Part shown: positions 9,135 through 47,556 of the stretch, one piece after another | How the letters are laid out: the number at the start of each line of letters is the position of its first letter | Position numbering within the stretch: position 1 is the first letter of the stretch | Origin: a virus | Taxonomy: Duplodnaviria; Heunggongvirae; Uroviricota; Caudoviricetes | IMG/VR virus record: IMGVR_UViG_3300033153_006784 | Location: 10,375-74,374 of that record | DNA: 64,000 bases | Direction: 5' to 3' (one strand) | Program-made: the position numbers and the translations under genes | The notes under the pieces: generated by a model | What the model was told of the DNA's origin: nothing | Databases searched by the model: none | What the model saw: only the letters and a program-made list of their open reading frames with translations

Positions 9135-9182
9135 CTACGTTTTGCAGACGTATGACCTCGCCTATGATCTTGCTTGTCCGGC
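9106..9182 (-). tRNA. tRNA-Cys (GCA), noncanonical D region
   Basis: Minus-strand reading shows the anticodon arm tacgt-ctGCAaa-acgta, T-arm ggggg-ttcgact-ccctc and a mostly paired acceptor stem. No encoded CCA. Overlaps the 3' end of the 8292-9134 ORF. Confidence 0.5.
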
Positions 9183-9225
9183 TTAGTAATATTTATATAT
9201 AACCCTGCTTATATATCTTACTATA

Positions 9226-9954
9226 TTGAGCCTCATTGAGAAAATTGCTGACTTAAAAGGACTTAAAAATAAAGGCGGTGTCTATAAGATCAGTACAGGA
9301 GAAATAATTTTTATCAGCGATGAAGAAGCATACAGTAAAAGATATGCCAATGAACCTCGAATGTTTGTAGGAGATTGGGGTTATTTTGAGAGGACATTTA
9401 CATATTATCAACTATTAATGGGCGTTGGATTAAAAGAAGATAGTAAAGTTCTTGATATCGGTTGTGGCATGTTAAATATGGGTAGACTTTTAATACCTAT
9501 CCTATCACCTGCTTGTTTCTACGGAATAGAACCTAACAAACACCTTATACGTGTCGGATTTGAAACACAGCTTGGATTTGACATAATTCCAACAAAAAGA
9601 CCCAAGTTCAGTACGAACCATGACTTTAACTTAGACGTTTTCGGTGTAGAGTTTGATTATATAATTTCACATTCAGTATTTTCTCATGCCGCACCTGCTC
9701 AGATTCAAAAATGTTTGTCACAAATAAAGAAAGTTTTAAAGGTTGGTGGCGTAGGATTTATCAGCTATGTAAACTCTACTAAAGATATCTTTAGCAGTGA
9801 ATGGGTTTATCCCGGTATTAATCAGTACAAATTTGCAACGATGCGTAAATGGATAGAAGCTGAAGGATTGAATATGGGATTTATTAAGAAAGGTGATAAT
9901 GCATTACAAACTCCAGACAACCAAGTTGTCTTTACCGTCCAGCAAAAAACATAA
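9226..9954 (+). CDS. Class I SAM-dependent methyltransferase
   Basis: Motif I VLDIGCGMLNMG. Confidence 0.7.
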   Translation: MSLIEKIADLKGLKNKGGVYKISTGEIIFISDEEAYSKRYANEPRMFVGDWGYFERTFTYYQLLMGVGLKEDSKVLDIGCGMLNMGRLLIPILSPACFYGIEPNKHLIRVGFETQLGFDIIPTKRPKFSTNHDFNLDVFGVEFDYIISHSVFSHAAPAQIQKCLSQIKKVLKVGGVGFISYVNSTKDIFSSEWVYPGINQYKFATMRKWIEAEGLNMGFIKKGDNALQTPDNQVVFTVQQKT

Positions 9955-10251
9955 CATTTTTATATAAGATGATATATTAAGTATTGCCTAAGTCCTGCCT
10001 ATAGGTTAAAGTTTGGGACAAACCCCGCCTTTGGATGTGTGTCTTAGGAACTGCGGGTAGGGTTGAGACATACTTGTGGGAAAACGAGTGAACAGTGAGA
10101 CGGTAAGGTATAAATCCTGATTCCCGATCAACACCCTTGAAAGTGTTGAAACCTCGGTTGAGTCATAGAGTTTTGAACTCCTGTCATAGTCGGCTTTTCC
10201 CAAAGCCTTGACTACATTGTTTGTCTCCCCTATATTTAGAAGAGTGATAAT

Positions 10252-10476
10252 ATGAGTGAAGAAAGACCGAAACATCCACCAAAATTCTGTCCTAACTGTG
10301 GTAAACCCACTACAAATTGTGTTGAACTTATGACAAACTTTAGAGGTAGCATTGTCTGGGATACTTATTGTAAGGGATGTGAGTGGAGTGGCGATATACG
10401 ACCAGACTCAGACCTTGATTACTACCGTGTTGAAGCCCTAGAGACACATAAACGGTTTAGTTCAGTGATTAAATGA
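10252..10476 (+). CDS. Zinc-ribbon protein
   Basis: CPNCG...C and YCKGC pairs. Confidence 0.4.
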   Translation: MSEERPKHPPKFCPNCGKPTTNCVELMTNFRGSIVWDTYCKGCEWSGDIRPDSDLDYYRVEALETHKRFSSVIK

Positions 10477-11384
10477 GCATACTAATAGCGACATCAACAA
10501 AACTTCACTACTTGGATAATGATAGAAAATTACATTCACTTGTACCGTATAGTTTTGTATATGGAATTACATGGGATAAAAACCAACTATACCTTGGGTT
10601 GCGGAGACATCCGTACATATCAGAACAATCGATAGGAGTGTTTGACGATCAATTTGAATTTGTAAAGAGATTACCTACTAAAGACTTGGATGATATACAT
10701 CAAATAATTTATCACGATGAAAAAATTTACATTACAAACACACGACATGAACGTGTTGATATAGTAGATAAAGATTATAATCAATCACAGCTTATTTATA
10801 CAGGCAAACCACAAAAGGGATTACATTTAAACTCGGTGTGGATAAATGATGATAAGATTTACCTAGTAGAACATAGACGCTCCGCAGGAAGTCGAGTTAG
10901 AATTCTTTATGGATATGATCCAGCTACTACTATTAGAACTACTAGAACTATAGATATAGGAAAAGGTGTACATGGAGTCTATGAAGAAGATAATTTCTTA
11001 TACGTATGTTCAAGCGAAAGAAATAAAATACTCAGATATGATTTAGATACAAAGAAAACTGAAATAGTTGTAAACTTTGCTGAGTTTATCAAAGGACATT
11101 GTAGAGGTATATGTCGGACTAAAGATAAATGGTACATCGGTATGTCTATGACAGGGCCAAAAGCCAGCAGACACCAGCTAAAAGGTTCAGCAGTTTTTGT
11201 ACTGGATAATAACTTTGAGATATTAGAACACATCAAGTTGAAGAAAACATACGGACAATTGAATGAGCTTCGAATCGTTGATGAGACAGATTACGCACAT
11301 AATCAGATACCATTCCCATACGATATAGAAAAGTTTATATATGATCGTGACCACATACTAGATGATCAAAATGAACTTGAATAG
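10473..11384 (+). CDS. Hypothetical protein
   Basis: 303-aa ORF with no recognised motif. Confidence 0.35.
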   Translation: MSILIATSTKLHYLDNDRKLHSLVPYSFVYGITWDKNQLYLGLRRHPYISEQSIGVFDDQFEFVKRLPTKDLDDIHQIIYHDEKIYITNTRHERVDIVDKDYNQSQLIYTGKPQKGLHLNSVWINDDKIYLVEHRRSAGSRVRILYGYDPATTIRTTRTIDIGKGVHGVYEEDNFLYVCSSERNKILRYDLDTKKTEIVVNFAEFIKGHCRGICRTKDKWYIGMSMTGPKASRHQLKGSAVFVLDNNFEILEHIKLKKTYGQLNELRIVDETDYAHNQIPFPYDIEKFIYDRDHILDDQNELE

Positions 11385-11637
11385 AAAAGAAAGAGACACT
11401 ACTCTCATCACTGTTGAAGTTAGTTGAAACACTGATCCACGTTCTGTTAAGAAAATGATCTCGAAAGAGATGAATACCGCATCAAATATTAAAGCAAAGA
11501 AAACTAGGTTGAAGGTTTCCACCGCACTACGTAGAATATTTTCGTTATTTAGCGAAAGTTTCGGTAATTACCGAAAATCTGGTGTGTTTGTTTTCTCGGC
11601 ACACGATGGTATCTGAACAATTTATCCAGATATACCA

Positions 11638-11979
11638 TTGACCGTGAACAATTATCATTGTGGTAAAACTTTTAAGATCGATTTGCTTCAGCTTCATTTA
11701 AATCCGAAGCAAAAAGAATACGTTATAGATGTCAATGAAAAGACAGCAAAGCTTCTAATTAAACAAGGAGATTTTATATCTACAGTTGAAACTTTAGCTT
11801 CAGGTATATCTTCAGACCATAATCAAGGTGGACAGTCTCAAAATAGATTTCATAGGAAACGAGAGCAAGCAATCAAACAGTTCTGTAAAAGGATACTGAA
11901 AAGAAGTAAAGAGTTAGAGTTTATAGAACCTAAATATACTGGAAACGAAAGACTTATAAATATCTTAGAAGATATATAG
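11638..11979 (+). CDS. Hypothetical protein
   Basis: ORF only. Confidence 0.3.
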   Translation: MTVNNYHCGKTFKIDLLQLHLNPKQKEYVIDVNEKTAKLLIKQGDFISTVETLASGISSDHNQGGQSQNRFHRKREQAIKQFCKRILKRSKELEFIEPKYTGNERLINILEDI

Positions 11980-12042
11980 AATGACATAGGAAGTTCCTAA
12001 AAAACAAGCCTGTTAAGCTATAATTACTTCCCGTCAATCCAT

Positions 12043-12723
12043 GTGATAACGATGAGAGAAGTTACGACAAGTATTTTAAAGAATATAGAATATGGAAAAT
12101 ATATACCCGTAATACATAACTATACCAGTAGAGATATTAATATTCAGCGTTCACAAGTTCTGCGAGATTTCTTAATATGGGATGAGACTAAAAGAGGTTT
12201 AGTTGCAGACGTAGGTATAGGTTACGGACAAATGGCAGCAGAATTTGCAAAACTTGGGTGGATGGTTCACGGTTACGATCCAGACCCTTTTCAGTTAGTA
12301 TTATCTGCTACCTATATTAATTACTTATTAGGTCAACCGTACATTGCAAACCTAATTGACATAAGTAAAGAACCATTGCCTTCAATGTACGATTATGTTG
12401 TATGCGGTCAAGTTTTAGAACATATACCAAATGAAGGAGAGGCTTTAAAAAATCTAGCTTCTGGAGTTATGCGTGGAGGGTGGTTGATTATAGATGTACC
12501 TTTGAATGAGACACTTAAAACGACAGATAATCCTCCAAAAGAAGTAGAGACACCGTTCCCAGAGAAATATTATACGTATGATCATTTAAGAACATATACA
12601 GATGCTAAAAGAATTGTGTCACGATTAGAAGAATGTGGATTATCGTATTATAATACAAGAATTATAGAGGGAACAAAACCTGAACCTTGGGAAGTATTAT
12701 TTTTATGGATGCGAAGAAAATGA
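12043..12723 (+). CDS. Class I SAM-dependent methyltransferase
   Basis: VADVGIGYGQMAAEFAKLGWMVHGYDPD (motif I plus the acidic residue). Confidence 0.7.
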   Translation: MITMREVTTSILKNIEYGKYIPVIHNYTSRDINIQRSQVLRDFLIWDETKRGLVADVGIGYGQMAAEFAKLGWMVHGYDPDPFQLVLSATYINYLLGQPYIANLIDISKEPLPSMYDYVVCGQVLEHIPNEGEALKNLASGVMRGGWLIIDVPLNETLKTTDNPPKEVETPFPEKYYTYDHLRTYTDAKRIVSRLEECGLSYYNTRIIEGTKPEPWEVLFLWMRRK

Positions 12724-13142
12724 AAAGACCAGAATTAAAAGACAAAGAGAAAATTCAGTTCTTATCTAAAATTTTAGCAAGACTGTTCGGATATTCCGGA
12801 TCTGTTAAGTTAGATTGGAGACAAGAAATGTTTGGTGAATATCATCAACTAACATTAAAAAATGTAGATTTAAGTTATGACAATATAAGATTATTAGAAC
12901 CTTTATCTGCAATGTTTGATTTACAGTTAGATAACAGAGCTTATATTGGTGAAGAAGTTCTTGATAGTGATGATGGAAAGATTAGACTCATACATACTGA
13001 TCAAGATTTAGTTATAACAGAAAACTATGAGACACATCTACTAAGACTGTCACCAAAAAAATTCAAGAAAGAAAGAAGTCATTACGAGATAGAGTGGACA
13101 AAAGAAGACGAAGAAAAGTACGACCACAACACCGTAGAATAG
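12687..13142 (+). CDS. Hypothetical protein
   Basis: ORF overlapping its neighbour by 37 nt. Confidence 0.3.
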   Translation: MGSIIFMDAKKMKRPELKDKEKIQFLSKILARLFGYSGSVKLDWRQEMFGEYHQLTLKNVDLSYDNIRLLEPLSAMFDLQLDNRAYIGEEVLDSDDGKIRLIHTDQDLVITENYETHLLRLSPKKFKKERSHYEIEWTKEDEEKYDHNTVE

Positions 13143-13170
13143 AAATATTTTTATATAGGTTCATCTATTT

Positions 13171-14128
13171 ATGTACAAACATGAGATTTGAAAACGCAGA
13201 AATATTAATTTCTGGCGGTGCTGGATTTATTGGTTCATGGTTATGTGAATACCTCCTAGATGAAGGAGCAAGAGTTATCAGCATCGACAATATGAGTACA
13301 GGTAGTTGGAATAATGTCCGGCACTTAAAAAATAATCCGAATTTTACTCAGTACGTATATGACGTTCAAGACCCAAAAATAGTAGATGATTTCAAGGTAG
13401 CATGCTTTGATATTGTAATGCATTTTGCATCCCTTGCGTCACCATTCCACTTTCCAGAATATCCCATTGAAATTCTAGATACGAATCTTTTGGGAACGAG
13501 AAATATGTTAGAGATTGCACGTTCTAGTGACGCTAGATTTATGTTTGCATCTACAAGTGAAGTATATGGAGATACAGATGTTATTCCTATTCCTGAAACT
13601 TATAGAGGTAACGTAAATCTTGAAGGTGTCAGAGGGTGCTATGACGAAGGTAAACGTGGCGGAGAAGCATACTGCTACGCATATAAAAGAAAATATGACT
13701 TGGATGTTCGCATTGCGAGAATATTTAATACATACGGTGAACGGATGCCGAAAGATAGGAGAGTTGTGCCTAACTTTTTAGGGAGAGCGTTGGCAGGTAA
13801 ACCTTTACACATCTTTGGAGATGGTACACAAACAAGAGCATATATGTACATCGAAGATTTAATTGAAGGGTTACTCTTACTGTTAGAGGCTGAAGATATG
13901 TCCGGGATACCAGTAAATCTTGGACAACAAAAGGAAACCACAGTCCTGAACTTGGCAGAAATAGTTCTGAATCTTACAAAGAGTAAGTCCGATCTTGAGT
14001 ACCACCCGCTCCCTGAAGACGACCCGAAGAGACGACTACCTGACATCACTAGAGCTAGAGAAATGCTTGGATGGGAACCTATTATCGATCTGAACGAAGG
14101 CATACGTAGAACCCTTGAAGAATGGTAA
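13171..14128 (+). CDS. UDP-glucuronate decarboxylase (UDP-xylose synthase)-like NAD-dependent epimerase/dehydratase
   Basis: GGAGFIGSWL Rossmann motif, YxxxK, and the near-exact UXS block RIARIFNTYGERM. The likely start is MRFENAEIL at 13171, although the ORF frame opens at 13094. Confidence 0.85.
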
Positions 14129-17879: not shown

Positions 17880-18029
17880 GCCTTGGTGAACGGTGAACTA
17901 ACGAAGGGAAAGTATAAGTCACATGGACTTTAACTTGTCGAGTAATTACGGAACTGAATGGAGTTCAAAGAGCTTGCTTCCTGTCATGTAAGGGAAGTAA
18001 TGATGTGGGTTCAATTCCCACCCAAGGTA
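17880..18029 (+). ncRNA. tRNA-like element of about 150 nt with a canonical T-arm and paired termini, possibly an intron-containing or noncanonical tRNA
   Basis: T-arm gtggg-ttcaatt-cccac, then ccaaggt pairing with gccttgg at 17880. Internal hairpin cttcc-tgtcatgtaag-ggaag (11-nt loop containing TCA). No clean cloverleaf could be built by eye. Confidence 0.3.
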
Positions 18030-18041
18030 TCACAAATATTT

Positions 18042-19882: not shown

Positions 19883-20052
19883 AGCCGGAGTAGCACAGTG
19901 GTAGTGCGTCTCCCTTGTAGCGGAGATGGAAAAAGGTAGTAGTCCTTAACACCTTGGTATATAGGTTTTGGAAGTTATGAGACGAACCCACCCTCATATA
20001 TGCCCCGCAAGATAGGAGATGGTCGGGTGTTCGATCCACCCTTCCGGCCCCA
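19883..20052 (+). tRNA. tRNA-Thr (TGT) with an intron of about 95 nt in the anticodon loop, CCA encoded
   Basis: Acceptor gccggag/ttccggc, D-arm gcac-agtggta-gtgc, anticodon stem tctcc with loop ctTGTa. The intron runs about 19919-20013 and begins gcggaga, which is complementary to the anticodon stem. The 3' anticodon stem ggaga follows, then T-arm gggtg-ttcgatc-caccc and CCA. Confidence 0.65.
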
Positions 20053-20490: not shown

Positions 20491-20567
20491 AGCCCAGTGG
20501 CCAAGTTGGAAAGGCTCCTCCCTGATAAGGAGGTAATGCGACGGTTCAAATCCGTCTTGGGCTACCA
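20491..20567 (+). tRNA. tRNA-Ile (GAT), CCA encoded
   Basis: Acceptor agcccag/ttgggct, anticodon arm cctcc-ctGATaa-ggagg, T-arm gacgg-ttcaaat-ccgtc, CCA. Confidence 0.8.
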
Positions 20568-20572
20568 CTCGA

Positions 20573-20647
20573 AGCCCTATAGCTTAATGGAAAAGTGCTC
20601 TCCTTATAAGGGAGTGAGTATCGGTTCGATTCCGGTTAGGGCTACCA
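20573..20647 (+). tRNA. tRNA-Ile (TAT, AUA-decoding), CCA encoded
   Basis: Acceptor agcccta/tagggct (perfect), anticodon arm ctctc-ctTATaa-gggag, T-arm atcgg-ttcgatt-ccggt, CCA. Confidence 0.65.
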
Positions 20648-23025: not shown

Positions 23026-23102
23026 AGTCCTATCGTCTAGTGGACAAGGATACCGGGCTTTGAACCCGGAGATCGTGAGTTCGAATCTCTCTAGGACTAC
23101 CA
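23026..23102 (+). tRNA. tRNA-Gln (TTG), CCA encoded
   Basis: Acceptor agtccta/taggact (perfect), anticodon arm ccggg-ctTTGaa-cccgg, T-loop ttcgaat, CCA. Confidence 0.75.
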
Positions 23103-23142
23103 CTCACCAATACCTTTAAATATAACATTTTATATAATCTGT

Positions 23143-26434: not shown

Positions 26435-27145
26435 ATGGTTCAAGCAATAATTCTTGCAGCCGGAGGAGGAGCAAGACTATACCCTCTCACAGATGTTATC
26501 CCGAAAATTATGGTGCCTGTAGGTGTTGAACAATATCCACTAGCACACATGATAGTAGATCACTGTATGGATCACGGTATAACTGAGTTTTTATTTTGCT
26601 TGAATGACCAAAGCGGTAAACAAGTCATGAATTATCTTGGCAACGGTGCAAGATTTGGTTGTAATGTTCAATATTCGTTTAGCTCTGAACCACAAGGCAC
26701 AGCAGGAGAGTTAAAGCTAGCGTGGGAAAAAGGATTAGTACAAACTCCTGCAATAATTTATTATGGAGACACTTTATGTTCAACTAATCTGAGTCTCATG
26801 ATGCAGATGCATGAAAAAAGAGATGCAGATGTTTCTATTGTCATTAAACAAGTTCGAATAGCCGTCGGTTACATTGAAGATGACAAAGATGGAAACGTTA
26901 TGAAGATAGTAGAAAAACCTCACATTGGAGACATGGTTAAAAATGCTGGAGGTGTCCTACCCATTTTCTACGTTGAAGATGATGAATTTTTCATGGTCTT
27001 TTGTAGAAGAGACACCGATGTTATGCGAGATGTCTTCCCTATAATGATCCAAAACAGTTATAAGTTAGTAACGTTCCGTGATACACAGCCGTTCCTTGAC
27101 TTGGGGAATTGGAAAAATTATGAGAAGGCTAAAAAATGGGTATGA
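26435..27145 (+). CDS. Sugar-1-phosphate nucleotidyltransferase (G1P thymidylyl/uridylyl-transferase family)
   Basis: N-terminal AIILAAGGGARLYPLT (the GxGxRL motif of NDP-sugar pyrophosphorylases). Confidence 0.8.
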   Translation: MVQAIILAAGGGARLYPLTDVIPKIMVPVGVEQYPLAHMIVDHCMDHGITEFLFCLNDQSGKQVMNYLGNGARFGCNVQYSFSSEPQGTAGELKLAWEKGLVQTPAIIYYGDTLCSTNLSLMMQMHEKRDADVSIVIKQVRIAVGYIEDDKDGNVMKIVEKPHIGDMVKNAGGVLPIFYVEDDEFFMVFCRRDTDVMRDVFPIMIQNSYKLVTFRDTQPFLDLGNWKNYEKAKKWV

Positions 27146-27687
27146 AAGACGAGAACAAAACAAAGAAAATTTCAACCAAAGTGGGTATCACTGGAGCACA
27201 CAGTAGCGGTAAAACTACTAGAATTGAATTCATAACAGAAGTTTGTAAATTAATGAGATATCCATATATTATTGTTCCTGAATCAGCTAGGAGAGCTAAA
27301 GAAGTAGGGTTGGATATCAACAAAGAAGCTGATTATAAAGTTCAAAAGTGGATTATGGATGATCAAATAGTAAATGAACTTGATGCAGAACAAGACAGTA
27401 GATATAACACATTAATATTGTGTGATAGGACTGTGTGGGATGTAGTCGTTTATTCTTCATTTGCATTACAACGAGATATGCTAACACTTCCACAATATAA
27501 TATCTTAGAAGGACAAGCTAGACAACATGCAGTATTGTCTCCTTATGATAAAATTTATCTTTGTAAGCCTAGACCAATGATTGATGATGGTATCCGTGAT
27601 ACTGATGTCGAATGGCAAAGGCAACTCTTTGAAAGATTTGAATATTACTTTGCTATCAATGGTATAAGATACGAACTTCTCCGATAG
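27136..27687 (+). CDS. P-loop kinase/ATPase of the NadR C-terminal (ribosylnicotinamide kinase, AAA_28) type
   Basis: Walker A VGITGAHSSGKTT resembles the NadR ribosylnicotinamide-kinase (RNK) domain G(G)ESSGKST. Small size at 183 aa. Confidence 0.45.
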   Translation: MGMKDENKTKKISTKVGITGAHSSGKTTRIEFITEVCKLMRYPYIIVPESARRAKEVGLDINKEADYKVQKWIMDDQIVNELDAEQDSRYNTLILCDRTVWDVVVYSSFALQRDMLTLPQYNILEGQARQHAVLSPYDKIYLCKPRPMIDDGIRDTDVEWQRQLFERFEYYFAINGIRYELLR

Positions 27688-27719
27688 ATTTATAAATAAC
27701 CTCTTTCTATATAGGGTTA

Positions 27720-27793
27720 GTCCTGTTGGTAGAGCTTGGTAACATATCTGCTTGTCGAGCAGATGGTCGTGGGTTCAAATCCCGCACAGGACG
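27720..27793 (+). tRNA. tRNA-Asp (GTC), D arm atypical, no CCA
   Basis: Acceptor gtcctgt/acaggac (perfect), anticodon arm atctgc-ttGTCga-gcagat, T-arm gtggg-ttcaaat-cccgc. Confidence 0.65.
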
Positions 27794-27810
27794 CTTTCAA
27801 GGTGAATAAA

Positions 27811-28110
27811 ATGGATGAACAAAAAACGCAAACACTCATGTACGCAGCACTTCTAGTTAATGCTGGAGGATATGAAATTACAGAAGCAAGATTGCTAAGT
27901 GTAATAAATTCTGCTGGAATAGTGTTTGATAAAATTGAAATAAACAAAGTAGTAACAGCGTTACAGGGTATTGACATCCAAGAGGTTATCAAGAATCCTT
28001 TTGTAGCAGTTGAAAGTGCAGCAATTCTTCCAGAAGAAGAGGATGAAGAAGAAGTTATCGAACCAGAAATAGTAACAGGATTTGACATTCTGTTCGGAAA
28101 GGGCGAGTAA
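27811..28110 (+). CDS. Ribosomal stalk protein P1 (aP1/L12e)-like protein
   Basis: N-terminal YAALLVNAGGYEITEARLLSVINSAGIVFDKIEINKVVTALQGIDIQEVI, acidic EEEDEEE linker and C-terminal GFDILFG. This is the domain order and C-terminal motif (G[FL]xxLFG) of archaeal/eukaryal P1/P2 stalk proteins. The start is placed at the ATG at 27811 to clear tRNA-Asp. Confidence 0.7.
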   Translation: MDEQKTQTLMYAALLVNAGGYEITEARLLSVINSAGIVFDKIEINKVVTALQGIDIQEVIKNPFVAVESAAILPEEEDEEEVIEPEIVTGFDILFGKGE

Positions 28111-28178
28111 TTCAGTCTGGTATGTGAGCCTGTCTTGCAAACAGGAGGTCGTGAGTTCAAATCTCACCTCGTCCACCA
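28101..28178 (+). tRNA. tRNA-Ala (TGC), CCA encoded
   Basis: Acceptor gggcgag/ctcgtcc, anticodon arm cctgt-ctTGCaa-acagg, T-arm gtgag-ttcaaat-ctcac, CCA. The D region is 2 nt longer than canonical. Confidence 0.6.
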
Positions 28179-28779: not shown

Positions 28780-29431
28780 ACATATAGAAGATGTCAGTTT
28801 AGTTGATTATCCCGAACATGTTGCTTCAGTTTTATTTTATGAAAACTGTAACCTGAGATGCCCTTATTGTCACAATCCTGAACTGCTAAGTCCGGGAAAT
28901 GGTCTATATTTTATGGATGTCTTGAAAAAATTAAAAGAGAACCGACTCATTGATGGTGTAGTATTTACTGGTGGTGAACCTTTACTTACCAATGGTCTTG
29001 CGTATGATTTGGCTCAGATAGATGCTCTAGGGTTAGATATTAAACTTGACACAAATGGTCTATTAACATCTAAATTGAAAAATGTATTTATACTGTTAGA
29101 TTATATTGCAATGGATATCAAATCAGACAAATGGGGATACAAACATTTAGGAGCTACCGATCTAGATTTTACGATGGTTCAAGCCAGTATCAAAGCTATC
29201 ATGGATTCTGGAATAGATTACGAGTTTAGATGTACTGCTGTAGATCCGTTCCTTACTGAAAGGTCTACTGATAGTATTGGAAAGTTGGTAGAAGGAGCCA
29301 AGCTGTTTTATATTCAACAACCTAACCTAGTTCATGTGCTTAATCCTGCGTTTTCTATGCGTCCAACCGAAAATCTTATAAAGATCAAAGATATATTAAG
29401 TTCATACGTCAACGAAGTGATAATAAGGTGA
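28772..29431 (+). CDS. Radical SAM protein of the glycyl-radical-activase / QueE-like small type
   Basis: YENCNLRCPYCHN (CxxxCxxC cluster at the N-terminus) plus VVFTGGEPLL. Confidence 0.7.
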   Translation: MIRHIEDVSLVDYPEHVASVLFYENCNLRCPYCHNPELLSPGNGLYFMDVLKKLKENRLIDGVVFTGGEPLLTNGLAYDLAQIDALGLDIKLDTNGLLTSKLKNVFILLDYIAMDIKSDKWGYKHLGATDLDFTMVQASIKAIMDSGIDYEFRCTAVDPFLTERSTDSIGKLVEGAKLFYIQQPNLVHVLNPAFSMRPTENLIKIKDILSSYVNEVIIR

Positions 29432-29597
29432 AAGTCGAAACTATCAGAAGTGATGGAAGAAGATCCGTTGATGATGATATAAAAGATATATTAAGAGGAA
29501 TTGTTGAATGGATTCCTTTTGCTGAATATGGAGAGACTTTGACACTTAAAATATTAATAGAAGACGACATGATAAAGATGATAAAAAAAAGTAGAAA

Positions 29598-29671
29598 GCG
29601 GTTGTGATGTAGTGGTCGCATGGGGGCCTTCCAAGCCCTTCGAGCGGGTTCGATTCCTGCCAACCGCACCA
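29598..29671 (+). tRNA. tRNA-Gly (TCC), CCA encoded
   Basis: Acceptor gcggttg/caaccgc (perfect), anticodon arm ggggc-ctTCCaa-gccct, T-arm gcggg-ttcgatt-cctgc, CCA. Confidence 0.8.
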
Positions 29672-30479: not shown

Positions 30480-30665
30480 AGTGAGATAGAACAGTCAGGT
30501 AGTTCGCAAGGCTCATAATAGGGGCAAGAGTGTAAGTAGGCCAACCTTGGATGATGGACACTGGAAACGGTGCTGAACGATTAATTCAAGGCTCTCACCA
30601 TTCTCTCCAATGAGAAACCTTGAGGCGGTAATCCGGTTCCGGAGGTTCAAATCCTCCTCTCGCTA
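30480..30665 (+). tRNA. Intron-containing tRNA with anticodon CAU (Met or Ile2-type) and an extended variable region
   Basis: Acceptor agtgaga/tctcgct, D-arm gaac-agtcaggta-gttc, anticodon stem caagg with loop ctCATa. A roughly 100-nt insert ends in ...aATGAGaa, complementary to the anticodon loop (anticodon-intron pairing). Then the 3' stem ccttg, an 18-nt variable region and T-arm ggagg-ttcaaat-cctcc. No CCA. Identity uncertain. Confidence 0.45.
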
Positions 30666-30677
30666 CCTTTAAGTTAT

Positions 30678-30840: not shown

Positions 30841-30916
30841 CTGGATGTAGCAAAATGGTTAATGCATTGGTCTGTAGAGCCAAAAGGTGCAGGTTCGAAT
30901 CCCGCCATCCAGACCA
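30841..30916 (+). tRNA. tRNA-Tyr (GTA), type I (short variable arm), CCA encoded
   Basis: Acceptor ctggatg/catccag (perfect), anticodon arm ttggt-ctGTAga-gccaa, 5-nt variable loop, T-loop ttcgaat, CCA. Confidence 0.75.
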
Positions 30917-33039: not shown

Positions 33040-35625
33040 ATGGTTGTCGGGAGAATAGTCTCCGCTTTCTATAAAGCACAGAAAGGTAGGTTTCCAAGAG
33101 TACATTTTGCTATTAGAACGCCAGAAGGTAAAAAAGTATTTCCTGAACCAGTGTACGTAACTGAAAAGCCTTACTTTTATATTAGAGATGAAGACAGAGA
33201 AGTTGCTAGAGTTACCATGATCTTACTAGGTATGGACTTGGGCGAAGATTTTAAATTTGTTGAGACTGATTATAGTTTTGGCATGGCTAACGGAAAAGTT
33301 GTCAGAGTAGAGTTGTGGGAACCTTGGAGAATAGGAGGTTTAAAAAAGCTATTTAGAAAGAAAAGTATAGAAATATATGAAGCAGACATACCTTATATTA
33401 GGAGACTAAAGATAGATAATGATATCTATTCTGGTATAAAGATTGAAAATGGTAAGTTTTCAGCATATAATGGTGAATTACCAGCACCTAGAATGTTATA
33501 CATTGACATTGAAGTAGACGATTCAAACGGTTTTCCTGAAACTCCCGGTGAGTTTTCAATTTTATGTATAGGAACAACCAATGATAAGGGAATAAACAAA
33601 TATTTCACATGGCAGTGGCCTAATACCACCGAATCAGCTATGATGAAAGACTTCTTTGATTATGCTAAAGAATATGATTATTTGATTGTATGGAATAAAG
33701 ACTTTGAATCAAAACATATACCTATGAGAGCGAGAAAATTAAATATCTGGGTAGAGTGGAAAATATTTAGATGGGTAGACTTGGCAGAATACTACAAGAT
33801 GTACAATCTTCAGTCTCACTATGAAAAATTACCTTATGCTTATCAAAAAACATTAGGAAAATTTAGAAAGAAAATGAAAGATGCAGGCGTTATAAAGTAT
33901 GAAAAGTTAGAAAGGCTCCCGAACTATTACAAGGCATGGAAGTCTAGCCCTGACAGGATGAGGGAAGTAAACATTTCACATGCCTATGCTTTATATGCTA
34001 TGGAGACAGCGATGGAAGTCATAAAGCTATACTCCAGCGTCGCAGATGAAGTTGGAATATTCCCGGACTACACTCACTTAAATTCTCACATAGTAGATAC
34101 AATGGCACTTAGAAAAATTAAGAACAGTAACAAGAGATGGATTATTAACTCATCAGGAGAATTCAGAGGTGGAAAGAAAGGATTCTCTGGAGCGGTAGTT
34201 TTCAAAGCAAAACGAGGAGTACACCCATTCGTGTTTCTGTTCGACTTTACATCACTGTATAATAGAATCATTCAATCTTATCTACTTGATCCAATTGCAT
34301 ATTTCCACTGGAAAGGAACGTTTACAGAAAACGGAGTAGATGAGTATATCAAGTTTGCGAGGACGTTTGGAGAAGTTTATGGTATCGAAGTAGAGTTTGA
34401 AGACGGTATAAAACGGCTACCCATTTTTCCTGCAATTCTACACCAACTAGAACAACGTAGAAACTTTTTAAAAGACGAAAGAAAAAAGCACCCTTACGGC
34501 TCACCACAGTATGAGATGTATGACTCTTTACAGAAAGCAGCCAAAGTAATTCTGCTGGCATGTTATGGAGTCCTTGGGATGTCTTCGAGCAGATGGGCAA
34601 TTGAAAAGGACATACCTGAATCAATGATATTAGTTACCGACAATGTTAGGACACTAGAAGATATTGAAATTGATTACAGAGTTCCCAATAAGCCACAAGA
34701 AAAATTTGTAGGGATGGTAACTTATATTGCAAGGAGTGCGTTGATTGGTTCAAAGGAATTCTTCGATGAAGATAAGAATGTAAACGTAATATATGGCGAC
34801 ACCGATTCAGACTTTGTAAATCCTGTCGATTTGATTGATCCATTGAAATCATACAAAACACTCACCAAAGAGGATTTGGAAAAGCTCTTCGCTTTCGGTA
34901 TGGAATACGGAGACAAGCTAGCAACGTTCTTCTCTGAACGATTCGAGGCAGGAATCGACATGAAACTTGAAAAGATATTCGATAGAGGAGTGTTTGGCAA
35001 AGTTAAAAAGCAATATTATTGTAGGACAATTTGGGATGAGGACTCAGGTTGGCAACTAGATGAAGATGGTAACTTAACATGGTATGAATATACTAAGGGA
35101 CTCCCCCTTGTTCGTTCAGACAGAACGACCTTCTTGAAAAATACACAAAGAGGTACTTTAAAAACGATGTTAGATAATCCACAAGAATTAGAAGCAATGT
35201 GGTCTGTGTTAGCCGAGGACTTTTACAAAAACAAATACGATCACGAACTTATACTAAGGATTGGAATTAAAAGAAGACTTGAAACCTATATCAAAAACAT
35301 AACACCTGTAATCCGAGCAGCTAGAAAGTTAGAAGCCAGAGGTGAAAAGATACGTCCCGGTGAAAAGGTGTCGTTTATAATACAAGACGTTGTAAATAAG
35401 AAAAAAGTATCTGAACCAATAGACGAAGGCTTAGAACCAAAAGACGCTGTAGCTATGTATCCACCTATCACGAAAGCCGCATTAGATTATTACTGGAAGG
35501 ATAGAATATGGAAAAATATCAAGCCTTTCTTAGAGCTAGTGCTGACAGAAAGAGAAATTGTAAAGATAGAACTGGCGAAAAAGAGAATGAAAAGTTTAGA
35601 TTCGTGGTTTAAACCTCAACCGTAA
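33040..35625 (+). CDS. polB: Family B DNA polymerase
   Basis: Exo I LYIDIEVDD, polymerase motif C VIYGDTDSDF (YGDTDS) and a 3'-5' exonuclease-plus-polymerase domain layout at 861 aa. Confidence 0.9.
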   Translation: MVVGRIVSAFYKAQKGRFPRVHFAIRTPEGKKVFPEPVYVTEKPYFYIRDEDREVARVTMILLGMDLGEDFKFVETDYSFGMANGKVVRVELWEPWRIGGLKKLFRKKSIEIYEADIPYIRRLKIDNDIYSGIKIENGKFSAYNGELPAPRMLYIDIEVDDSNGFPETPGEFSILCIGTTNDKGINKYFTWQWPNTTESAMMKDFFDYAKEYDYLIVWNKDFESKHIPMRARKLNIWVEWKIFRWVDLAEYYKMYNLQSHYEKLPYAYQKTLGKFRKKMKDAGVIKYEKLERLPNYYKAWKSSPDRMREVNISHAYALYAMETAMEVIKLYSSVADEVGIFPDYTHLNSHIVDTMALRKIKNSNKRWIINSSGEFRGGKKGFSGAVVFKAKRGVHPFVFLFDFTSLYNRIIQSYLLDPIAYFHWKGTFTENGVDEYIKFARTFGEVYGIEVEFEDGIKRLPIFPAILHQLEQRRNFLKDERKKHPYGSPQYEMYDSLQKAAKVILLACYGVLGMSSSRWAIEKDIPESMILVTDNVRTLEDIEIDYRVPNKPQEKFVGMVTYIARSALIGSKEFFDEDKNVNVIYGDTDSDFVNPVDLIDPLKSYKTLTKEDLEKLFAFGMEYGDKLATFFSERFEAGIDMKLEKIFDRGVFGKVKKQYYCRTIWDEDSGWQLDEDGNLTWYEYTKGLPLVRSDRTTFLKNTQRGTLKTMLDNPQELEAMWSVLAEDFYKNKYDHELILRIGIKRRLETYIKNITPVIRAARKLEARGEKIRPGEKVSFIIQDVVNKKKVSEPIDEGLEPKDAVAMYPPITKAALDYYWKDRIWKNIKPFLELVLTEREIVKIELAKKRMKSLDSWFKPQP

Positions 35626-38012: not shown

Positions 38013-39497
38013 ATGAGTTTAACCTCCGATGATCTAGCACCTGACCAGATGGAAGAGTTGCTAAGACTACAAACAGATCCACCGTATCTGTACGACAAAT
38101 TTTTCGCAACAGAAGATGAACCTTTTCCTTTTGTATATCAAACAGAAGTTTTAAGAGACGTTGCTAGTAAAAAATTTACCGAGTTAGTTATCCTGAAAGG
38201 CAGACAAATTGGTATGTCTTGGACTATGGGAATTCTTGCATGTTGGTATGGTATTATGAACCCAAACAAGACAATTTTAGTAGTAGCGTTCAACTTAGAC
38301 CAAGGACAGATTATATTAAATTATTGTAAACAGTTTTTATCACGGCTCAAAGTTTTAGGTGTCCACAGTTTATTCGTAGATGGTGCTAGTGCAAGAGAGA
38401 TTAGATTTACAAACGGTAGCAAAATCAAATGTTTCGGATGTACAGTCCCGGACGCTTATAATGTTCGTGGGCAGAAAGCAGACTTACTTTTAGTAGACGA
38501 AGCCGCATTTATCTATGATAGAATGTTCCCATCAATCACACCAACGACAGCAAACACAGGTGGAATTACAGTATTCTTATCTACTGCGGGTTCAGTTGGT
38601 TCATATTTCTACAGAAAATGGAGTGAAGGTAACAGAGCAAACGAATGGAGAAGAAAGTTAAAGAAAGGTTTTGAAATAGAAATAGATGAAAAAGACATAC
38701 CTAGTATCAAATCTTATACTATACCTTCAATTGAATGTAAGAGATTAACTCCGAAAAAATTAGAAGCTGAAAGGCGTGGTCTAGGCGAGATGAAATTCAA
38801 AAGAGAATACGAATGTATGTGGGCAGGTACAGCAGACCAAGTATTCATGAGAATCCCAACATACACCATGACAAAATCTATTACAAAATCAAATAGAATG
38901 TGCTTCGGAGGCATAGATGTAGGTAAAGTAAATGATCCTACAGTTCTTATGATCATTGAAGTATATATGGCTGAGATGAAAATAATACAAGAAGGCGTTA
39001 GAATGAGTGTTCAAGTACCATATAGAGTCATACATGGGAAATCGTGGGAACGTGCAACTCAGAAGGAAATTGCCGTAGATATTGCTACAAATATACATCC
39101 TCGTTTTCCGTGTAGATTGTACTCAATTGACGCTACGGGAGGATATGGAGAAGAATTACTAGGTACTTTGATAAACTTCGAGTTAAATTGTCGTGGACTT
39201 AAAGTTAAAACTAAAATGAAGAATGAAATGATGTTAGGAAGCCGAGCAATTAAAGGATTGTCAGATGCTTTCCAAGAAGAATTGCTTTGGGTCAACAATG
39301 ACGTTAATGACATCGTATCAACAGAACTTCTCTTTGAATTAAATGCTTATGTTGGAAAGCTCCGGGCTACTGGTCTTTATGTATTTGACTCAGTTATTGA
39401 CCGTGATCACATGGTCGATGCCCTTGCTCATGCATGGTCAGCACTCCAAGCTGGAGCATTTGATCCCTATTTATCAATAAAAAAGAGCAAATTTTAG
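38013..39497 (+). CDS. terL: Terminase large subunit
   Basis: Lambda-gpA-like deviant Walker A KGRQIGMSWT, Walker B LLLVDEAAFI and a C-terminal RNaseH-like nuclease block GGIDVGKVNDPTVLMIIE. Confidence 0.8.
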   Translation: MSLTSDDLAPDQMEELLRLQTDPPYLYDKFFATEDEPFPFVYQTEVLRDVASKKFTELVILKGRQIGMSWTMGILACWYGIMNPNKTILVVAFNLDQGQIILNYCKQFLSRLKVLGVHSLFVDGASAREIRFTNGSKIKCFGCTVPDAYNVRGQKADLLLVDEAAFIYDRMFPSITPTTANTGGITVFLSTAGSVGSYFYRKWSEGNRANEWRRKLKKGFEIEIDEKDIPSIKSYTIPSIECKRLTPKKLEAERRGLGEMKFKREYECMWAGTADQVFMRIPTYTMTKSITKSNRMCFGGIDVGKVNDPTVLMIIEVYMAEMKIIQEGVRMSVQVPYRVIHGKSWERATQKEIAVDIATNIHPRFPCRLYSIDATGGYGEELLGTLINFELNCRGLKVKTKMKNEMMLGSRAIKGLSDAFQEELLWVNNDVNDIVSTELLFELNAYVGKLRATGLYVFDSVIDRDHMVDALAHAWSALQAGAFDPYLSIKKSKF

Positions 39498-43773: not shown

Positions 43774-43990
43774 AACAAATTTAAGAAAAGGATTGTATAG
43801 AACATTTGATGAAATCTTGGTAGATTTAGGAGCAGATGGGTATCAAGAACCAACCATAACAATACAGGCTATTAAAGATAAATCAATGCACATACTTGTC
43901 AGGACAAGACAAGTTATAGGTGGCGATGGTGATTGGGAAGTTCACTTAATCGTTGAAAACGGAAATTTTCCTAATAAAAAGCGGGCGTAG
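43766..43990 (+). CDS. Hypothetical small protein
   Basis: ORF only. Confidence 0.25.
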   Translation: MDRTNLRKGLYRTFDEILVDLGADGYQEPTITIQAIKDKSMHILVRTRQVIGGDGDWEVHLIVENGNFPNKKRA

Positions 43991-44056
43991 CAGGGAATCG
44001 AACCCTATCCTTGAGGATCACAACCTCCTATGCACCACTTTCGTGCCAGTTACACC
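43983..44056 (-). tRNA. tRNA-His (GTG), minus strand
   Basis: Minus-strand reading: acceptor ggtgtaa/ctacgcc (6 of 7 paired), anticodon arm (g)gagg-ttGTGat-cctc(a), T-arm taggg-ttcgatt-ccctg, discriminator C. A TATA-like tatataaatc lies about 20 nt upstream and a T-run downstream. The D region is irregular. Confidence 0.45.
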
Positions 44057-44100: not shown

Positions 44101-45420
44101 ATGATACTTTACTCAATCCGACGACATGTTAGTAAACATGTGTGGGATCGTAGCGGTAAAATCATGGGAAGAGTCTATGATTATAGGATATCTAAAAGAA
44201 GATTGTCCGGATTAATTATGAATTCTGAACGAGATGCGTTTTACAGTCCTTGGATATCTTATGACGGTACATTTTATTGTGACTGTCAAGGGTATGAAGG
44301 TTCCGACAATATATGTAGCCATATTTTAGCATTGTTAAAAAAGGCTGATTTTGAAGGAGACGATGTAAGCCCGTTTGTAAATGGGTTGAATAAAGTTCCT
44401 AATGAGGTAGAAGATATGAAATATGAAACACAGTTAAAATGTTACGATGATTTGTTTGGCGGTTTACGTACAGGACAAATTTCTGGTGTAGTATCAGCAC
44501 CAGAGGTAGGAAAAAGTCTGCTCATTGCTACGTTAGCGGTAGACATGATGAAGAATCATGGAAAGAACGCATTAGTCATTGATACAGAAGGTGGATTCAC
44601 AGCAGAGTGGTTAGAAGGTATTGCTGAAAGATATGGATTAGAAGAATTTGATGTTGTCAACATAAAGTGGAGAGTTAAAGTTGAAAGACGAGGAGGTACT
44701 GCGGAACAATTAGTACCTATGACTAATGAACCAAAATACCTGAAAAAAGAAGACGGTACAAGAGGAAAAATGACTAGAAAATCTACATTTGATTACAAAA
44801 AGTTTAAACTTCCAAAAGAAACAGATAAACCTACGGTGTATATTTACAATGCAAGACATGCAGTTCAAATATATCCGTTTTTTGGTAGACCACAAATGAT
44901 GAGGATCAAAGGCGGAGTAATTGAGCCTACAGAATATGGTGCAATGACATCTATCTGGGATAGTCCTGTTGGTATGCTTGTAGATAAGAGAAATATAGGA
45001 TTTGTTGCACTAGACTCAATCTCTACTCCAATGGAAAGTCTGTTCACAGGTGGACAGATTAACTTCCGTACAAGAGGAAAAGCACAATCAGTTCTATTTG
45101 GAAGAGCACAAGATTTGGTAGATGAATATCCTGTTGTATTTATGACAACTGTACATGCAACAATTAATCACGCTAATGAATATGCTAAACCACAACATAC
45201 TGGTGGAAAATCTATTTTACACAACGTAAAATGGGTAGCTTATCTAGAAAAATATGAAGGTAAAGCTGTAGCAAAAGCAGCCGGATTAAACTTTAGAAAT
45301 CTCCGGGCAATGTACGTTTACAGACATCCAATGAAAACTCCTTGGGAAGATAAAACATATTGTCAAACCACTGGTCAAGGTATTCAAGATTTTGATAGGA
45401 GTGCATACGTAAATGACTGA
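44101..45420 (+). CDS. RecA/RadA-fold ATPase with N-terminal SWIM zinc finger
   Basis: SWIM CxCxnCxH YCDCQGYEGSDNICSHILAL. RecA-like Walker A GQISGVVSAPEVGKSLL and LVIDTEGG. Confidence 0.55.
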   Translation: MILYSIRRHVSKHVWDRSGKIMGRVYDYRISKRRLSGLIMNSERDAFYSPWISYDGTFYCDCQGYEGSDNICSHILALLKKADFEGDDVSPFVNGLNKVPNEVEDMKYETQLKCYDDLFGGLRTGQISGVVSAPEVGKSLLIATLAVDMMKNHGKNALVIDTEGGFTAEWLEGIAERYGLEEFDVVNIKWRVKVERRGGTAEQLVPMTNEPKYLKKEDGTRGKMTRKSTFDYKKFKLPKETDKPTVYIYNARHAVQIYPFFGRPQMMRIKGGVIEPTEYGAMTSIWDSPVGMLVDKRNIGFVALDSISTPMESLFTGGQINFRTRGKAQSVLFGRAQDLVDEYPVVFMTTVHATINHANEYAKPQHTGGKSILHNVKWVAYLEKYEGKAVAKAAGLNFRNLRAMYVYRHPMKTPWEDKTYCQTTGQGIQDFDRSAYVND

Positions 45421-45578
45421 ATTTGAACAGTGTCCTAGTTGCGGTTCTGATACAGATCAAGGTATATTTACTTGCGAAGATTGTGGATGTTCTCTATGTG
45501 AAAGCTGTGAGACTGAACCTTATCTTTGCGAGGGATGTGTTGACGCAAGATCCGATAAAGAAGATCCAAACATTTAAA
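45414..45578 (+). CDS. Cys-rich zinc-ribbon mini-protein (54 aa)
   Basis: MTEFEQCPSCGSDTDQGIFTCEDCGCSLCESCETEPYLCEGCVD. This alternative frame is preferred over the ORF-track 45423-45644 frame, which runs into tRNA-Ser. Confidence 0.4.
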
Positions 45579-45602
45579 TACTCCTTTTTTTATATATGTT
45601 TT

Positions 45603-45768
45603 GACGGGTTAGCCAAGTCTGGCCGTAAGGCGTTACACTGCTAAGCAGGACGAAACTCGAAAGCAGGGCGATACTTGAATCAGAACGAAACTGGAACGGT
45701 CTGCACAGAAATGTAATCACTCCGTAACCAATCGGAGTGCAGGGGTTCAAATCCCCTACCCGTCGCCA
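45603..45768 (+). tRNA. tRNA-Ser (GCT), type II, with an intron of about 67 nt, CCA encoded
   Basis: Acceptor gacgggt/acccgtc (perfect), anticodon stem ttaca/tgtaa with loop ctGCTa(a). Insert about 45644-45710. Long variable arm cactccg-taaccaat-cggagtg, T-arm agggg-ttcaaat-cccct, CCA. Confidence 0.65.
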
Positions 45769-45786
45769 ATCAAAGAGGTATGATGT

Positions 45787-45996
45787 ATGGGAACTACTGG
45801 ATTTAGAATTGAATATTGGAAACGTGAACAGAAAAAAGGAGAATCACATAGTACGTTGAGACTTGTTAAATATCAACATTCAAGCTCTGCAATAGATATA
45901 GGAACGTATGCTAAAAACAAGATGAAAGAGATGGATGCTAGAGATCAAATTATAATTAAAAAAGGAAAATTAGTAATTAATTTCGAGGAAAAGTAA
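45787..45996 (+). CDS. Hypothetical small protein
   Basis: ORF only. Confidence 0.3.
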   Translation: MGTTGFRIEYWKREQKKGESHSTLRLVKYQHSSSAIDIGTYAKNKMKEMDARDQIIIKKGKLVINFEEK

Positions 45997-46827: not shown

Positions 46828-46893
46828 TTATTTTTTTATATAAATTAGCTATCATAACATTTATATACTACATATATATATGTATATGTTGCT

Positions 46894-47547: not shown

Positions 47548-47556
47548 AACACAACC

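Follow-up and report, generated by a model that had tools for sequence, protein, structure and literature searches.

A divergent homologue of the archaeal ribosomal stalk protein aP1 encoded among the tRNA genes of an uncultivated tailed virus

A 64,000-nucleotide (nt) stretch of a Caudoviricetes record in IMG/VR (IMGVR_UViG_3300033153_006784, positions 10,375 to 74,374; this whole stretch is referred to as the window) encodes a protein of 99 amino acid (aa) residues that was confirmed as a homologue of the archaeal ribosomal stalk protein aP1 by profile, PDB-sequence and fold evidence. Ribosomal proteins have long been seen as a dividing line between cells and viruses, although a few exchangeable ones are now known from phages. 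P1 is an archaeal/eukaryotic-type stalk protein that recruits elongation, initiation and recycling factors. Results from this study suggest, with a probability of about 0.6, that the viral P1 replaces or supplements the P1 of its host on the ribosomal stalk. An original prediction, made from the nucleotide sequence and its open reading frames (ORFs), had placed a 99-aa P1 homologue at 27811–28110. These coordinates proved to be exact, and the family model TIGR03685, the PDB chain 3a1y_A and the predicted fold all agree with the assignment. The three-part layout proposed at the same time, which consists of an N-terminal domain, an acidic hinge and the motif GFDILFG, was also found in full:

27811–28110, plus strand: P1 coding sequence, 99 aa plus TAA; ATG at 27811, TAA at 28108–28110
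27811–28008: N-terminal four-helix domain of P1, residues ~1–66
28009–28068: acidic disordered hinge of P1, residues 67–86
28078–28098: factor-binding motif GFDILFG of P1, residues 90–96
28099–28107: three extra C-terminal residues of P1, KGE

Residues 10–80 of P1 matched the NCBIfam model TIGR03685 (ribo_P1_arch) with an E value of 1.6e-12, and residues 22–70 matched the Pfam model PF00428 (Ribosomal_60s) with an E value of 2.8e-4. The best match among PDB sequences was 3a1y_A, the 58-residue N-terminal domain of P. horikoshii aP1 (E=2.6e-7, residues 10–62), followed by eukaryotic P2 and P1. A resemblance that is only compositional, which the original prediction had named as an outcome that would refute it, was ruled out, because the significant matches fall in the non-acidic N-terminal domain and the 3a1y_A chain has no acidic tail. 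An exhaustive HMMER search of 1.84e9 cluster representatives returned 82 matches at E<=1e-3, nearly all of which were 70–135 aa long and aligned like archaeal P1. The named ones were annotated as P1/L12, for instance one from a metagenome-assembled genome of Desulfurococcales. Moreover, a profile of the window P1 and its three nearest relatives pulled in more than 100 PF00428-bearing P1s, down to E=3e-20, and its matches included proteins of Bathyarchaeia, Heimdallarchaeota, Methanoculleus, Methanosphaera and DPANN lineages.

An AlphaFold2 model of P1 was built on a 55-sequence alignment. The predicted local distance difference test (pLDDT) values were 82–92 for the N-terminal domain (residues 1–60) and below 50 for hinge residues 67–86. 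The model has core helices at residues 2–18, 25–34, 41–51 and 56–61, a short helix at 63–70 and a short C-terminal helix at 90–94. The top Foldseek match in PDB was again 3a1y_A (template modelling score 0.92 on the target, root-mean-square deviation (rmsd) 0.8 Å, 56 columns, 39% identity), which is the aP1 N-terminal domain in its complex with aP0, and the next matches were P1/P2 of human, yeast and wheat. The N-terminal domain of the viral protein is therefore predicted to take the four-helix aP1 fold.

The residues of P1 were also compared column by column with those of 50 cellular P1s. In this alignment with archaeal P1s, which had been called for together with the original prediction, GFDILFG fell on the columns of the G-L-x-x-L-F-G motif, in which G, L, L, F and G are each 100% conserved. 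G90, L94, F95 and G96 of the window P1 are identical to the invariant columns and F91 replaces L. Most, but not all, of the invariant positions are retained in the window P1 (Y11, A12, L14, E25, G36, L51, I56, L94, F95 and G96). Viral V88, F91, L94 and F95, all of which are hydrophobic, are the equivalents of L100, L103, L106 and F107 of P. horikoshii aP1. In the latter, L103S, L106S and F107S abolish the binding of aEF1A, L100S weakens it, and the same residues as those abolishing aEF1A binding are responsible for the binding of aEF2 (PMC4267659). The window P1 also has a 9-residue N-terminal extension relative to the cellular P1s. Another natural variant of the motif was found in a more distant viral contig, L011, whose P1 copy (8400–8681) stops 6 nt short of the contig end and has GLGALFR in place of a terminal LFG.

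The P1 gene lies between two tRNA genes and is preceded by a putative promoter element and a Shine-Dalgarno motif:

27689–27698, plus strand: TATA-box-like element TTTATAAATA, 22–31 nt upstream of the 5' end of tRNA-Asp; read from the sequence
27720–27794, plus strand: tRNA-Asp (GTC), called by ARAGORN and by Rfam (RF00005, 55.3 bits); ends 16 nt upstream of the P1 start
27801–27805, plus strand: Shine-Dalgarno motif GGTGA, 5 nt ahead of the P1 ATG; read from the sequence
28101–28178, plus strand: tRNA-Ala (TGC), called by ARAGORN and by Rfam (49.4 bits), with a G3:U70 pair and an encoded CCA end

The TTTATAAATA box is a putative archaeal promoter of a unit composed of tRNA-Asp, P1 and tRNA-Ala. 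The GGTGA motif was also found ahead of other internal genes of the window and ahead of P1 in a related contig, L010. The gene call of the Joint Genome Institute (JGI) for P1 (P0001) starts at a GTG within the Shine-Dalgarno motif, 9 nt upstream, and gives 102 aa. The last 10 nt of the P1 ORF are the first 10 nt of the tRNA-Ala gene: the codons for K, G and E and the stop codon come from the tRNA-Ala acceptor stem plus positions 8–10, the TAA being positions 8–10. The next ORF begins 7 nt downstream of tRNA-Ala. Because the locus sequence contains no oligo-T tract between tRNA-Asp, P1, tRNA-Ala and this ORF, the locus is probably transcribed as one precursor, which tRNA processing would then punctuate.

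Similar to P1, a 59-aa ORF at 29428–29607 ends inside a tRNA gene with the same geometry, its TGA stop being positions 8–10 of tRNA-Gly (29598–29671). Both overlapping ORF ends share a 10-nt overlap with the tRNA and a stop of the form U-R-A. Cleavage at the 5' ends of these tRNAs would yield mRNAs without stop codons at both sites, which might be tolerated, regulatory or linked to a GGQ protein that is encoded elsewhere in the window. On the other side of the locus, P1 is adjoined by a gene for an AAA_28 (NadR-like) kinase (27136–27687, plus strand).

In archaea, the N-terminal domain of aP1 dimerises and binds aP0, the hinge is flexible and the C-terminal region binds each of the translational GTPases, and the heptameric aP0(aP1-aP1)3 stalk builds a local pool of factors (PMC7768734). 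The viral P1 would be transcribed from the BRE/TATA promoter (BRE, B recognition element) together with tRNA-Asp and tRNA-Ala, and would be translated from the GGTGA Shine-Dalgarno motif. The protein would then dimerise via its N-terminal domain, dock on the C-terminal helices of host aP0 and replace or top up host aP1 in the aP0(aP1)2(aP1)2(aP1)2 stalk of existing ribosomes, where its tail (V88, F91, L94 and F95) would recruit aEF1A, aEF2, aIF5B and ABCE1. Together with the 15–20 viral tRNAs, viral P1 would sustain or re-tune translation during infection. The logic would be that established for bL12 of phages, in which peripheral, exchangeable ribosomal proteins are the ones picked by viruses. 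That the viral P1 manipulates elongation or GTPase recruitment, as the original prediction had suggested, is something that we infer.

Several observations weigh against a role on the ribosome. The search with P1 family models that the original prediction had recommended gave the significant E values reported above, but both scores were under the curated cut-offs (47.7 versus 100 bits for TIGR03685 and 21.8 versus 28.1 bits for PF00428). Because of these scores the viral P1 is best described as a divergent homologue and not as an "equivalog". The relatives P0002–P0004 likewise miss the family thresholds, while P0088, the P1 of L011, clears that of PF00428 with 37.3 bits. Lys45, which is invariant in the 50 cellular P1s, is N in the window P1 and Q, Q and R in the other viral copies, and H17 is N in the window P1. 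The hinge is shorter than the cellular one and lacks its Ala/Pro-rich stretch. In P. horikoshii, the carboxylate of the terminal Gly of aP1 forms a salt bridge with K324 of aEF1A, and a K324L mutant loses binding (PMC4267659). In the window P1 the normally terminal Gly is followed by KGE and its carboxylate is not free; its relatives P0002 and P0004 end at LFG. Judged from the P. horikoshii complex, the KGE cap may alter the affinity for aEF1A. Moreover, an RNase P cut at 28100/28101 would strip the stop codon from the P1 mRNA, and therefore the translation of P1 and the maturation of tRNA-Ala would compete for one and the same molecule. The differences at K45, H17, the hinge and KGE could equally fit a protein without a function on the ribosome.

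An off-ribosome role, which we regard as unlikely, would make viral P1 a decoy: a free dimer whose tails soak up stalk-binding proteins. The targets could be host translational GTPases or ABCE1, resulting in host shut-off or a re-timing of translation, or alternatively a defence toxin of the host, docking on the tail of the stalk in the manner of ribosome-inactivating proteins on eukaryotic P proteins. Viral P1 indeed keeps the C-terminal motif while possible assembly positions (K45, H17 and the hinge) are changed, and its scores against the cellular family models are below threshold. The ability of aP1 to bind aEF1A in both GDP- and GTP-bound forms (PMC4267659) and the recruitment of ribosome-inactivating proteins by the C-terminus of eukaryotic P proteins (PMC4379515, PMC3794596) are also consistent with a decoy. 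A pure decoy, however, needs the tail only, whereas the N-terminal domain has a well-conserved hydrophobic core and a model that lies within 0.8 Å of the P0-bound aP1. Sequestered elongation factors would also starve viral translation, and the 15–20 viral tRNAs argue for boosting it. Moreover, we know of no stalk-targeting defence toxin in archaea, which also counts against a decoy.

Further viral copies of P1, which the original prediction had proposed to look for in metagenomes, were found on three other viral contigs (L006, L010 and L011), each beside tRNA genes. The three nearest database relatives of the window P1 have no precomputed Pfam match, and two of them are on contigs of clearly related viruses. 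L006, a 33-kb JGI contig carrying P0004, is collinear with the window at 44.5–55.4 kb, with 55–80% aa identity, and L010, which carries P0002, has a RadA-like gene that is 55–67% identical to that of the window. The gene order of L006 and L010 is a RadA-like gene, an intron-containing tRNA-Ser, P1 and an array of 4–5 tRNA genes; P1 and the tRNA array are situated between RadA-like and radical SAM genes (L006, 1198–2239; L010, 1603–2626). A small Cys-rich ORF (…KCY.CGMLFRR…RHPKEM) is upstream of P1 in L006 and downstream of it in L010. In the window, a tRNA-Ser (45603–45768) follows the RadA-like gene as in the relatives, and 45420–45997 keeps only this tRNA-Ser of the relatives' P1/tRNA site, while P1 is 18 kb away in another tRNA island. 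Thus, P1 has moved while staying among tRNA genes, and the tRNA islands appear to be hot spots of recombination. The window P1, P0002 and P0004 form a clade with 95.5% bootstrap support in a neighbour-joining (NJ) tree. L011, the contig of P0088, contains a portal gene (phrog_9232, E=7.6e-16), nrdD and four tRNA genes. Because it shares little with the window beyond a methyltransferase, L011 represents a second, more distant viral lineage with P1.

The context and composition of these genes differ from those of cellular P1 genes. P1 was flanked by tRNA genes in 4 of 4 viral loci, compared to no tRNA gene within ±3 kb in 42 cellular P1 loci, and the viral loci lack the ribosomal-protein and aminoacyl-tRNA synthetase genes that surround P1 in one annotated Bathyarchaeia locus (L012). 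The window P1 has a GC content of 36.7% (23% at third codon positions, GC3), versus 35.8% for the virus, and the P1 genes of L006 and L010 have 46%. Thus P1 composition tracks that of each carrying virus, while the nearest cellular P1 genes are 56–60% GC. Among the viral copies, the N-terminal core and (L/F)xxLFG are conserved and the hinge varies freely. The copies across samples are ~99.7–100% identical and the diverged ones are saturated, so that dN/dS was not computable. The presence in four diverged viral contigs, the module-specific conservation and the virus-matched composition nevertheless argue for a long-term retention of P1 under selection and not for a recent accidental capture.

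These results make it very unlikely that P1 is a functionless passenger, namely a host P1 that was captured by chance, for example with tRNA genes, and is now decaying. Decay could account for the divergence of P1, which is higher than that of any other gene of the neighbourhood (36–47% aa identity among the viral copies, a saturated range, versus 55–80% for neighbouring proteins), for the sub-threshold family scores and for the loss of the original stop position in the window copy, whose ORF runs into tRNA-Ala. It would hardly leave an intact ORF with a Shine-Dalgarno motif in four distinct viral contigs and at least two genomic positions, conservation concentrated in the N-terminal core and (L/F)xxLFG with a free hinge, or a GC content that has converged on each virus (37, 46 and 46%). 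A joint capture with tRNA genes is unsupported, since the cellular P1 loci have no adjacent tRNA genes.

That P1 is encoded by a virus, as originally predicted, is borne out by structural and replication genes on the same window:

33040–35625: family B DNA polymerase (PolB)
38013–39497, plus strand: large terminase subunit (phrog_2, E=7.3e-33; Pfam Terminase_6N)
58371–58751: minor tail protein (phrog_290, E=3.5e-5)
59852–62422, plus strand: tail tape-measure protein (phrog_58, E=1.2e-10)

Further replication genes of the window encode an exonuclease, a primase-like protein and a RadA/helicase-like protein, and there is a weak PCNA-like match. The window has a GC content of 35.8% and nearly all of its ORFs are on the plus strand. 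The terminase was at most 29% identical to that of any of the 50,697 phage and archaeal virus genomes of INPHARED, and no close relative of the virus was found in this collection (terminase <=29% and PolB ~22% identity). These low identities to deposited genomes suggest that the window belongs to a deep-branching, uncultivated tailed virus. An ORF of 607 aa that follows the terminase and is a candidate for the portal had no Pfam or PHROG match, and no major capsid protein was identified in the window. Some 50 kb of the window (7850–38026) and a segment at ~48356–49525 are represented by assemblies of 99.7–100% identity from at least 6 JGI samples, and the longest contig carrying the window P1 is 84 kb. 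For the ~50 kb around P1, a viral origin has firmer support than usual, since this region was reassembled from several samples and three further viral contigs also carry P1.

The same evidence bears on whether the contig instead derives from a small genome or a plasmid of an archaeon, with P1 being the stalk protein of that cell, a reading that we consider extremely improbable. P1 is universal in archaea, which counts for such an origin, as do the many auxiliary genes of cellular type (NAD salvage, glycosyltransferases and epimerases). However, the window contains large terminase, tape-measure and minor tail protein genes, a portal gene is present in the relative L011, and nearly all genes are on one strand. 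No rRNA gene was found in the 64-kb window by the Rfam scan, and no other ribosomal protein was found by the Pfam/PHROGs scans, which covered most window ORFs of at least 120 aa, or among the precomputed JGI Pfam calls. The viral P1 loci are flanked by tRNA genes and lack the neighbours of P1 in L012, and the same contig was recovered at 99.7–100% identity from at least 6 samples.

An archaeal host of this tailed virus is supported by features that are independent of P1, among them two tRNA genes:

19884–20052, plus strand: tRNA-Thr (TGT) with a 94-nt intron (19920–20013) at position 37/38; found with aragorn -i
30841–30916, plus strand: tRNA-Tyr (GTA), Rfam 68 bits, with a short variable arm (class I) and a C1:G72 pair

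The intron junctions of tRNA-Thr have the canonical hBHBh' layout of a bulge-helix-bulge (BHB), TCTCC-CTTG-TA^G-CGG ... CCG-CAAG-AT^A-GGAGA. It is composed of the anticodon stem TCTCC/GGAGA, a 4-bp helix CTTG/CAAG, an outer helix CGG/CCG and the 3-nt bulges TA^G and AT^A, in which the cut follows the second nucleotide. BHB introns are cut by the splicing endonuclease of archaea or eukaryotes, and a length of 94 nt is well below that of a group I intron. The intron-containing tRNAs would imply that the virus depends on the splicing endonuclease of its host. Two more interrupted tRNA genes are on the plus strand, at 30480–30667 (insertion of ~99 nt) and 45603–45768 (~67 nt). They were called as "Met" (with a long variable arm) and "Ser" (anticodon AGA), respectively; the placement of the anticodon and intron is doubtful, and they may hold non-canonical or multiple introns. 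ARAGORN with default settings missed all three interrupted genes and Rfam found only the last one.

The tRNA-Gly of the window carries A73. A class I tRNA-Tyr with C1:G72 and a tRNA-Gly with A73 are of the archaeal/eukaryal identity type and not of the bacterial one. A BRE/TATA-like box with the consensus aaCCTTTTTATATA was found 25–40 nt upstream of many ORF starts, and CYTTWWATA occurs at 29 sites versus 12.9 expected, a number reached in 0 of 100 shuffles; 23 of the 29 sites are on the plus (coding) strand. PolB matched haloarchaeal tailed viruses in 16 of 19 matched records, with ~22% identity, and a fragment of aRF1 with the GGQ domain is encoded in the window. The BHB tRNA intron, the type of tRNA-Tyr and tRNA-Gly, the BRE/TATA boxes, the GGTGA ribosome-binding sites, the affinity of PolB and the aRF1 fragment together support an archaeal host. 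The original prediction had left the host as archaeal or eukaryal. The archaeal part of this claim stands on these features, whereas a eukaryotic host was rejected, as the terminase, the tail genes and the use of Shine-Dalgarno motifs are those of a prokaryotic tailed virus.

Among cellular P1s, those closest to the window P1 are Bathyarchaeia-type sequences, with 50–52% identity across the N-terminal domain. In a genome scan with the N-terminal domain, 47 of 50 loci were from Bathyarchaeia, which is only a hint of origin as the search pattern was partly built from Bathyarchaeia-like sequences. Because of this bias, and because the cellular sister of the viral clade was unsupported in the NJ tree (11%), no Bathyarchaeia host is claimed.

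In addition to P1 and its tRNAs, the window encodes a second protein that is related to translation:

11644–11979, plus strand: stand-alone fragment of the aRF1 middle domain, 111 aa (Pfam eRF1_2, 30.4 bits; cut-off 27.1)

Its GGQ motif is HNQGGQSQNRF, and the acVLRF1 and baeRF families were also matched. The best PDB match was aRF1 of A. pernix (3agk_A, residues 122–207, E=1.1e-3), and only the protein itself was recovered when 5.8 billion proteins were searched with a word index. From its domain content, the GGQ protein could be a codon-independent peptidyl-tRNA hydrolase or a ribosome-rescue factor. P1, which is co-located and probably co-transcribed with tRNAs, and the aRF1 fragment can be regarded as a putative translation module. 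An extended version of this idea, which we think rather improbable, is that altered stalk P1, the viral tRNAs, with the intron-containing ones among them, and the stand-alone GGQ domain form a virus-specific module for the take-over of translation. The altered P1 (K45, short hinge, F91 and capped C-terminus) would then shift the preference for factors or mRNAs or act as a decoy for a stalk-directed defence, and the GGQ protein might free the peptides made from mRNAs that would lose their stop codon in tRNA processing.

With regard to the tRNAs themselves, the robust count for the window, from ARAGORN compared with Rfam, is ~16 and not 20. At 23026–23118, a tRNA-Gln called by ARAGORN on the plus strand overlaps a tRNA-Arg on the opposite strand, and Rfam backs the plus-strand gene only. 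A tRNA-Cys (9103–9179) and a tRNA-His (43983–44055) on the minus strand are unsupported by Rfam at its gathering threshold. The genes for tRNA-Ile(GAU) and tRNA-Ile(UAU) are adjacent (20491–20647, plus strand). A tRNA-Ile with the anticodon UAU is uncommon in prokaryotes, in which AUA is usually decoded by a modified CAU tRNA. The tRNA-Ile(UAU) may aid the decoding of AUA, as the genome is rich in AT. Finally, the T-arm-like GTGGGTTCAATTCCCAC upstream of tRNA-Trp (17990–18035, plus strand), called as a tRNA by neither tool, may be the remainder of a degraded or heavily interrupted tRNA gene.

The window also contains several groups of auxiliary genes. A probable module for the salvage or regeneration of NAD+ (250–3822 and 27136–27687, plus strand) contains an isochorismatase/nicotinamidase-like protein, an NAD synthetase (phrog_11189, E=1e-44), a NUDIX hydrolase, a cytidylyltransferase-like protein (NMNAT-type) and the AAA_28 kinase next to P1, and may counter an NAD-depleting host defence. 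A cluster for nucleotide modification (6098–7662, plus strand) encodes a dCMP deaminase, a protein with a MazZ-like dATP/dGTP diphosphohydrolase N-terminal domain (PF18909, E=5.5e-18) and a nucleoside 2-deoxyribosyltransferase, which hints at a modified DNA base. The repertoire for glycan and sugar modification (~8292–14128 and 45997–58131, plus strand) is unusually large for a virus. It includes at least five GT4-type glycosyltransferases, a Glyco_trans_1_2 protein, 2–3 NAD-dependent epimerases/dehydratases, several methyltransferases, a sulfotransferase, radical SAM enzymes and an NTP_transferase, and most of it is kept in L006 with 70–80% aa identity.

Similar to cellular aP1 (P. horikoshii 3a1y and 3wy9; TIGR03685, PF00428), the viral P1 is built of three parts and is of comparable length. 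The N-terminal fold is common to both, as far as the predicted model goes (rmsd 0.8 Å and 39% identity to 3a1y_A), and so are the acidic disordered hinge and the G-(L/F)-x-x-L-F-G motif with equivalents of L103, L106 and F107, although in the window P1 the motif is followed by KGE and does not stand at the very C-terminus. Different from cellular aP1, however, P1 of this virus is encoded among tRNA genes and not in a ribosomal/translation neighbourhood. K45 is replaced, H17 is N, L91 is F, the hinge is shorter, and there are extensions of 9 residues at the N-terminus and 3 residues at the C-terminus. The GC content is also different, 37% for the window P1 and 56–60% for the nearest cellular P1 genes.

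A counterpart in bacterial viruses is bL12 (L7/L12) of phages, which occupies the same niche, being a virus-encoded, multi-copy, flexible and exchangeable stalk protein that recruits GTPases. Phage bL12 and viral P1 are analogous and not homologous, and their hosts are bacterial and archaeal, respectively. Mass spectrometry of purified ribosomes revealed phage bL12 when it was expressed in E. coli, although affinity purification of a tagged version together with ribosomes failed (Mizuno et al. 2019, PMC6375957). According to the same study, bL12 and bS21 encoded by phages become part of ribosomes, and viruses favour exchangeable ribosomal proteins (PMC6375957). For the P stalk, a study in yeast describes an exchange of cytoplasmic P1/P2 with ribosome-bound copies (PMC3877244).

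In archaeal viruses, L21e of Hafunaviridae was the first ribosomal protein to be found, in 2021 (PMC8651126), and it was the only one until bL19 was reported from the Bathyarchaeia virus Kunpengvirus in 2023 (PMC10541130). At that time, the two were described as the only ones in archaeal viruses. Similar to P1, L21e and bL19 are ribosomal proteins of tailed archaeal viruses that are read as modifying the host translation apparatus. Different from P1, they are situated at other sites of the ribosome and not at the GTPase-associated stalk. No P1 family is present in PHROGs, no P1 was found in the 50,697 INPHARED genomes (tblastn, E<=1), and two pattern-plus-tblastn scans with P1 alignments found no P1 relative in IMG/VR. 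Likewise, no report of a virus-encoded P1/P2, stalk protein or PF00428 was found in the literature searched, whose coverage was incomplete, so that this absence is not proof. To our knowledge, the viral P1 is thus the first member of the P-stalk family among the virus-encoded exchangeable ribosomal proteins.

If the viral P1 works on the host stalk, archaeal viruses, similar to phages with bL12, would converge on the GTPase-recruiting stalk as a control point of translation. The viral copies also provide a natural set of variants for probing the stalk, which includes the substitutions of K45, the change of L to F in the motif, the short hinge and the capped C-terminus. Finally, P1 is of use as a marker of archaeal viruses in metagenomes.

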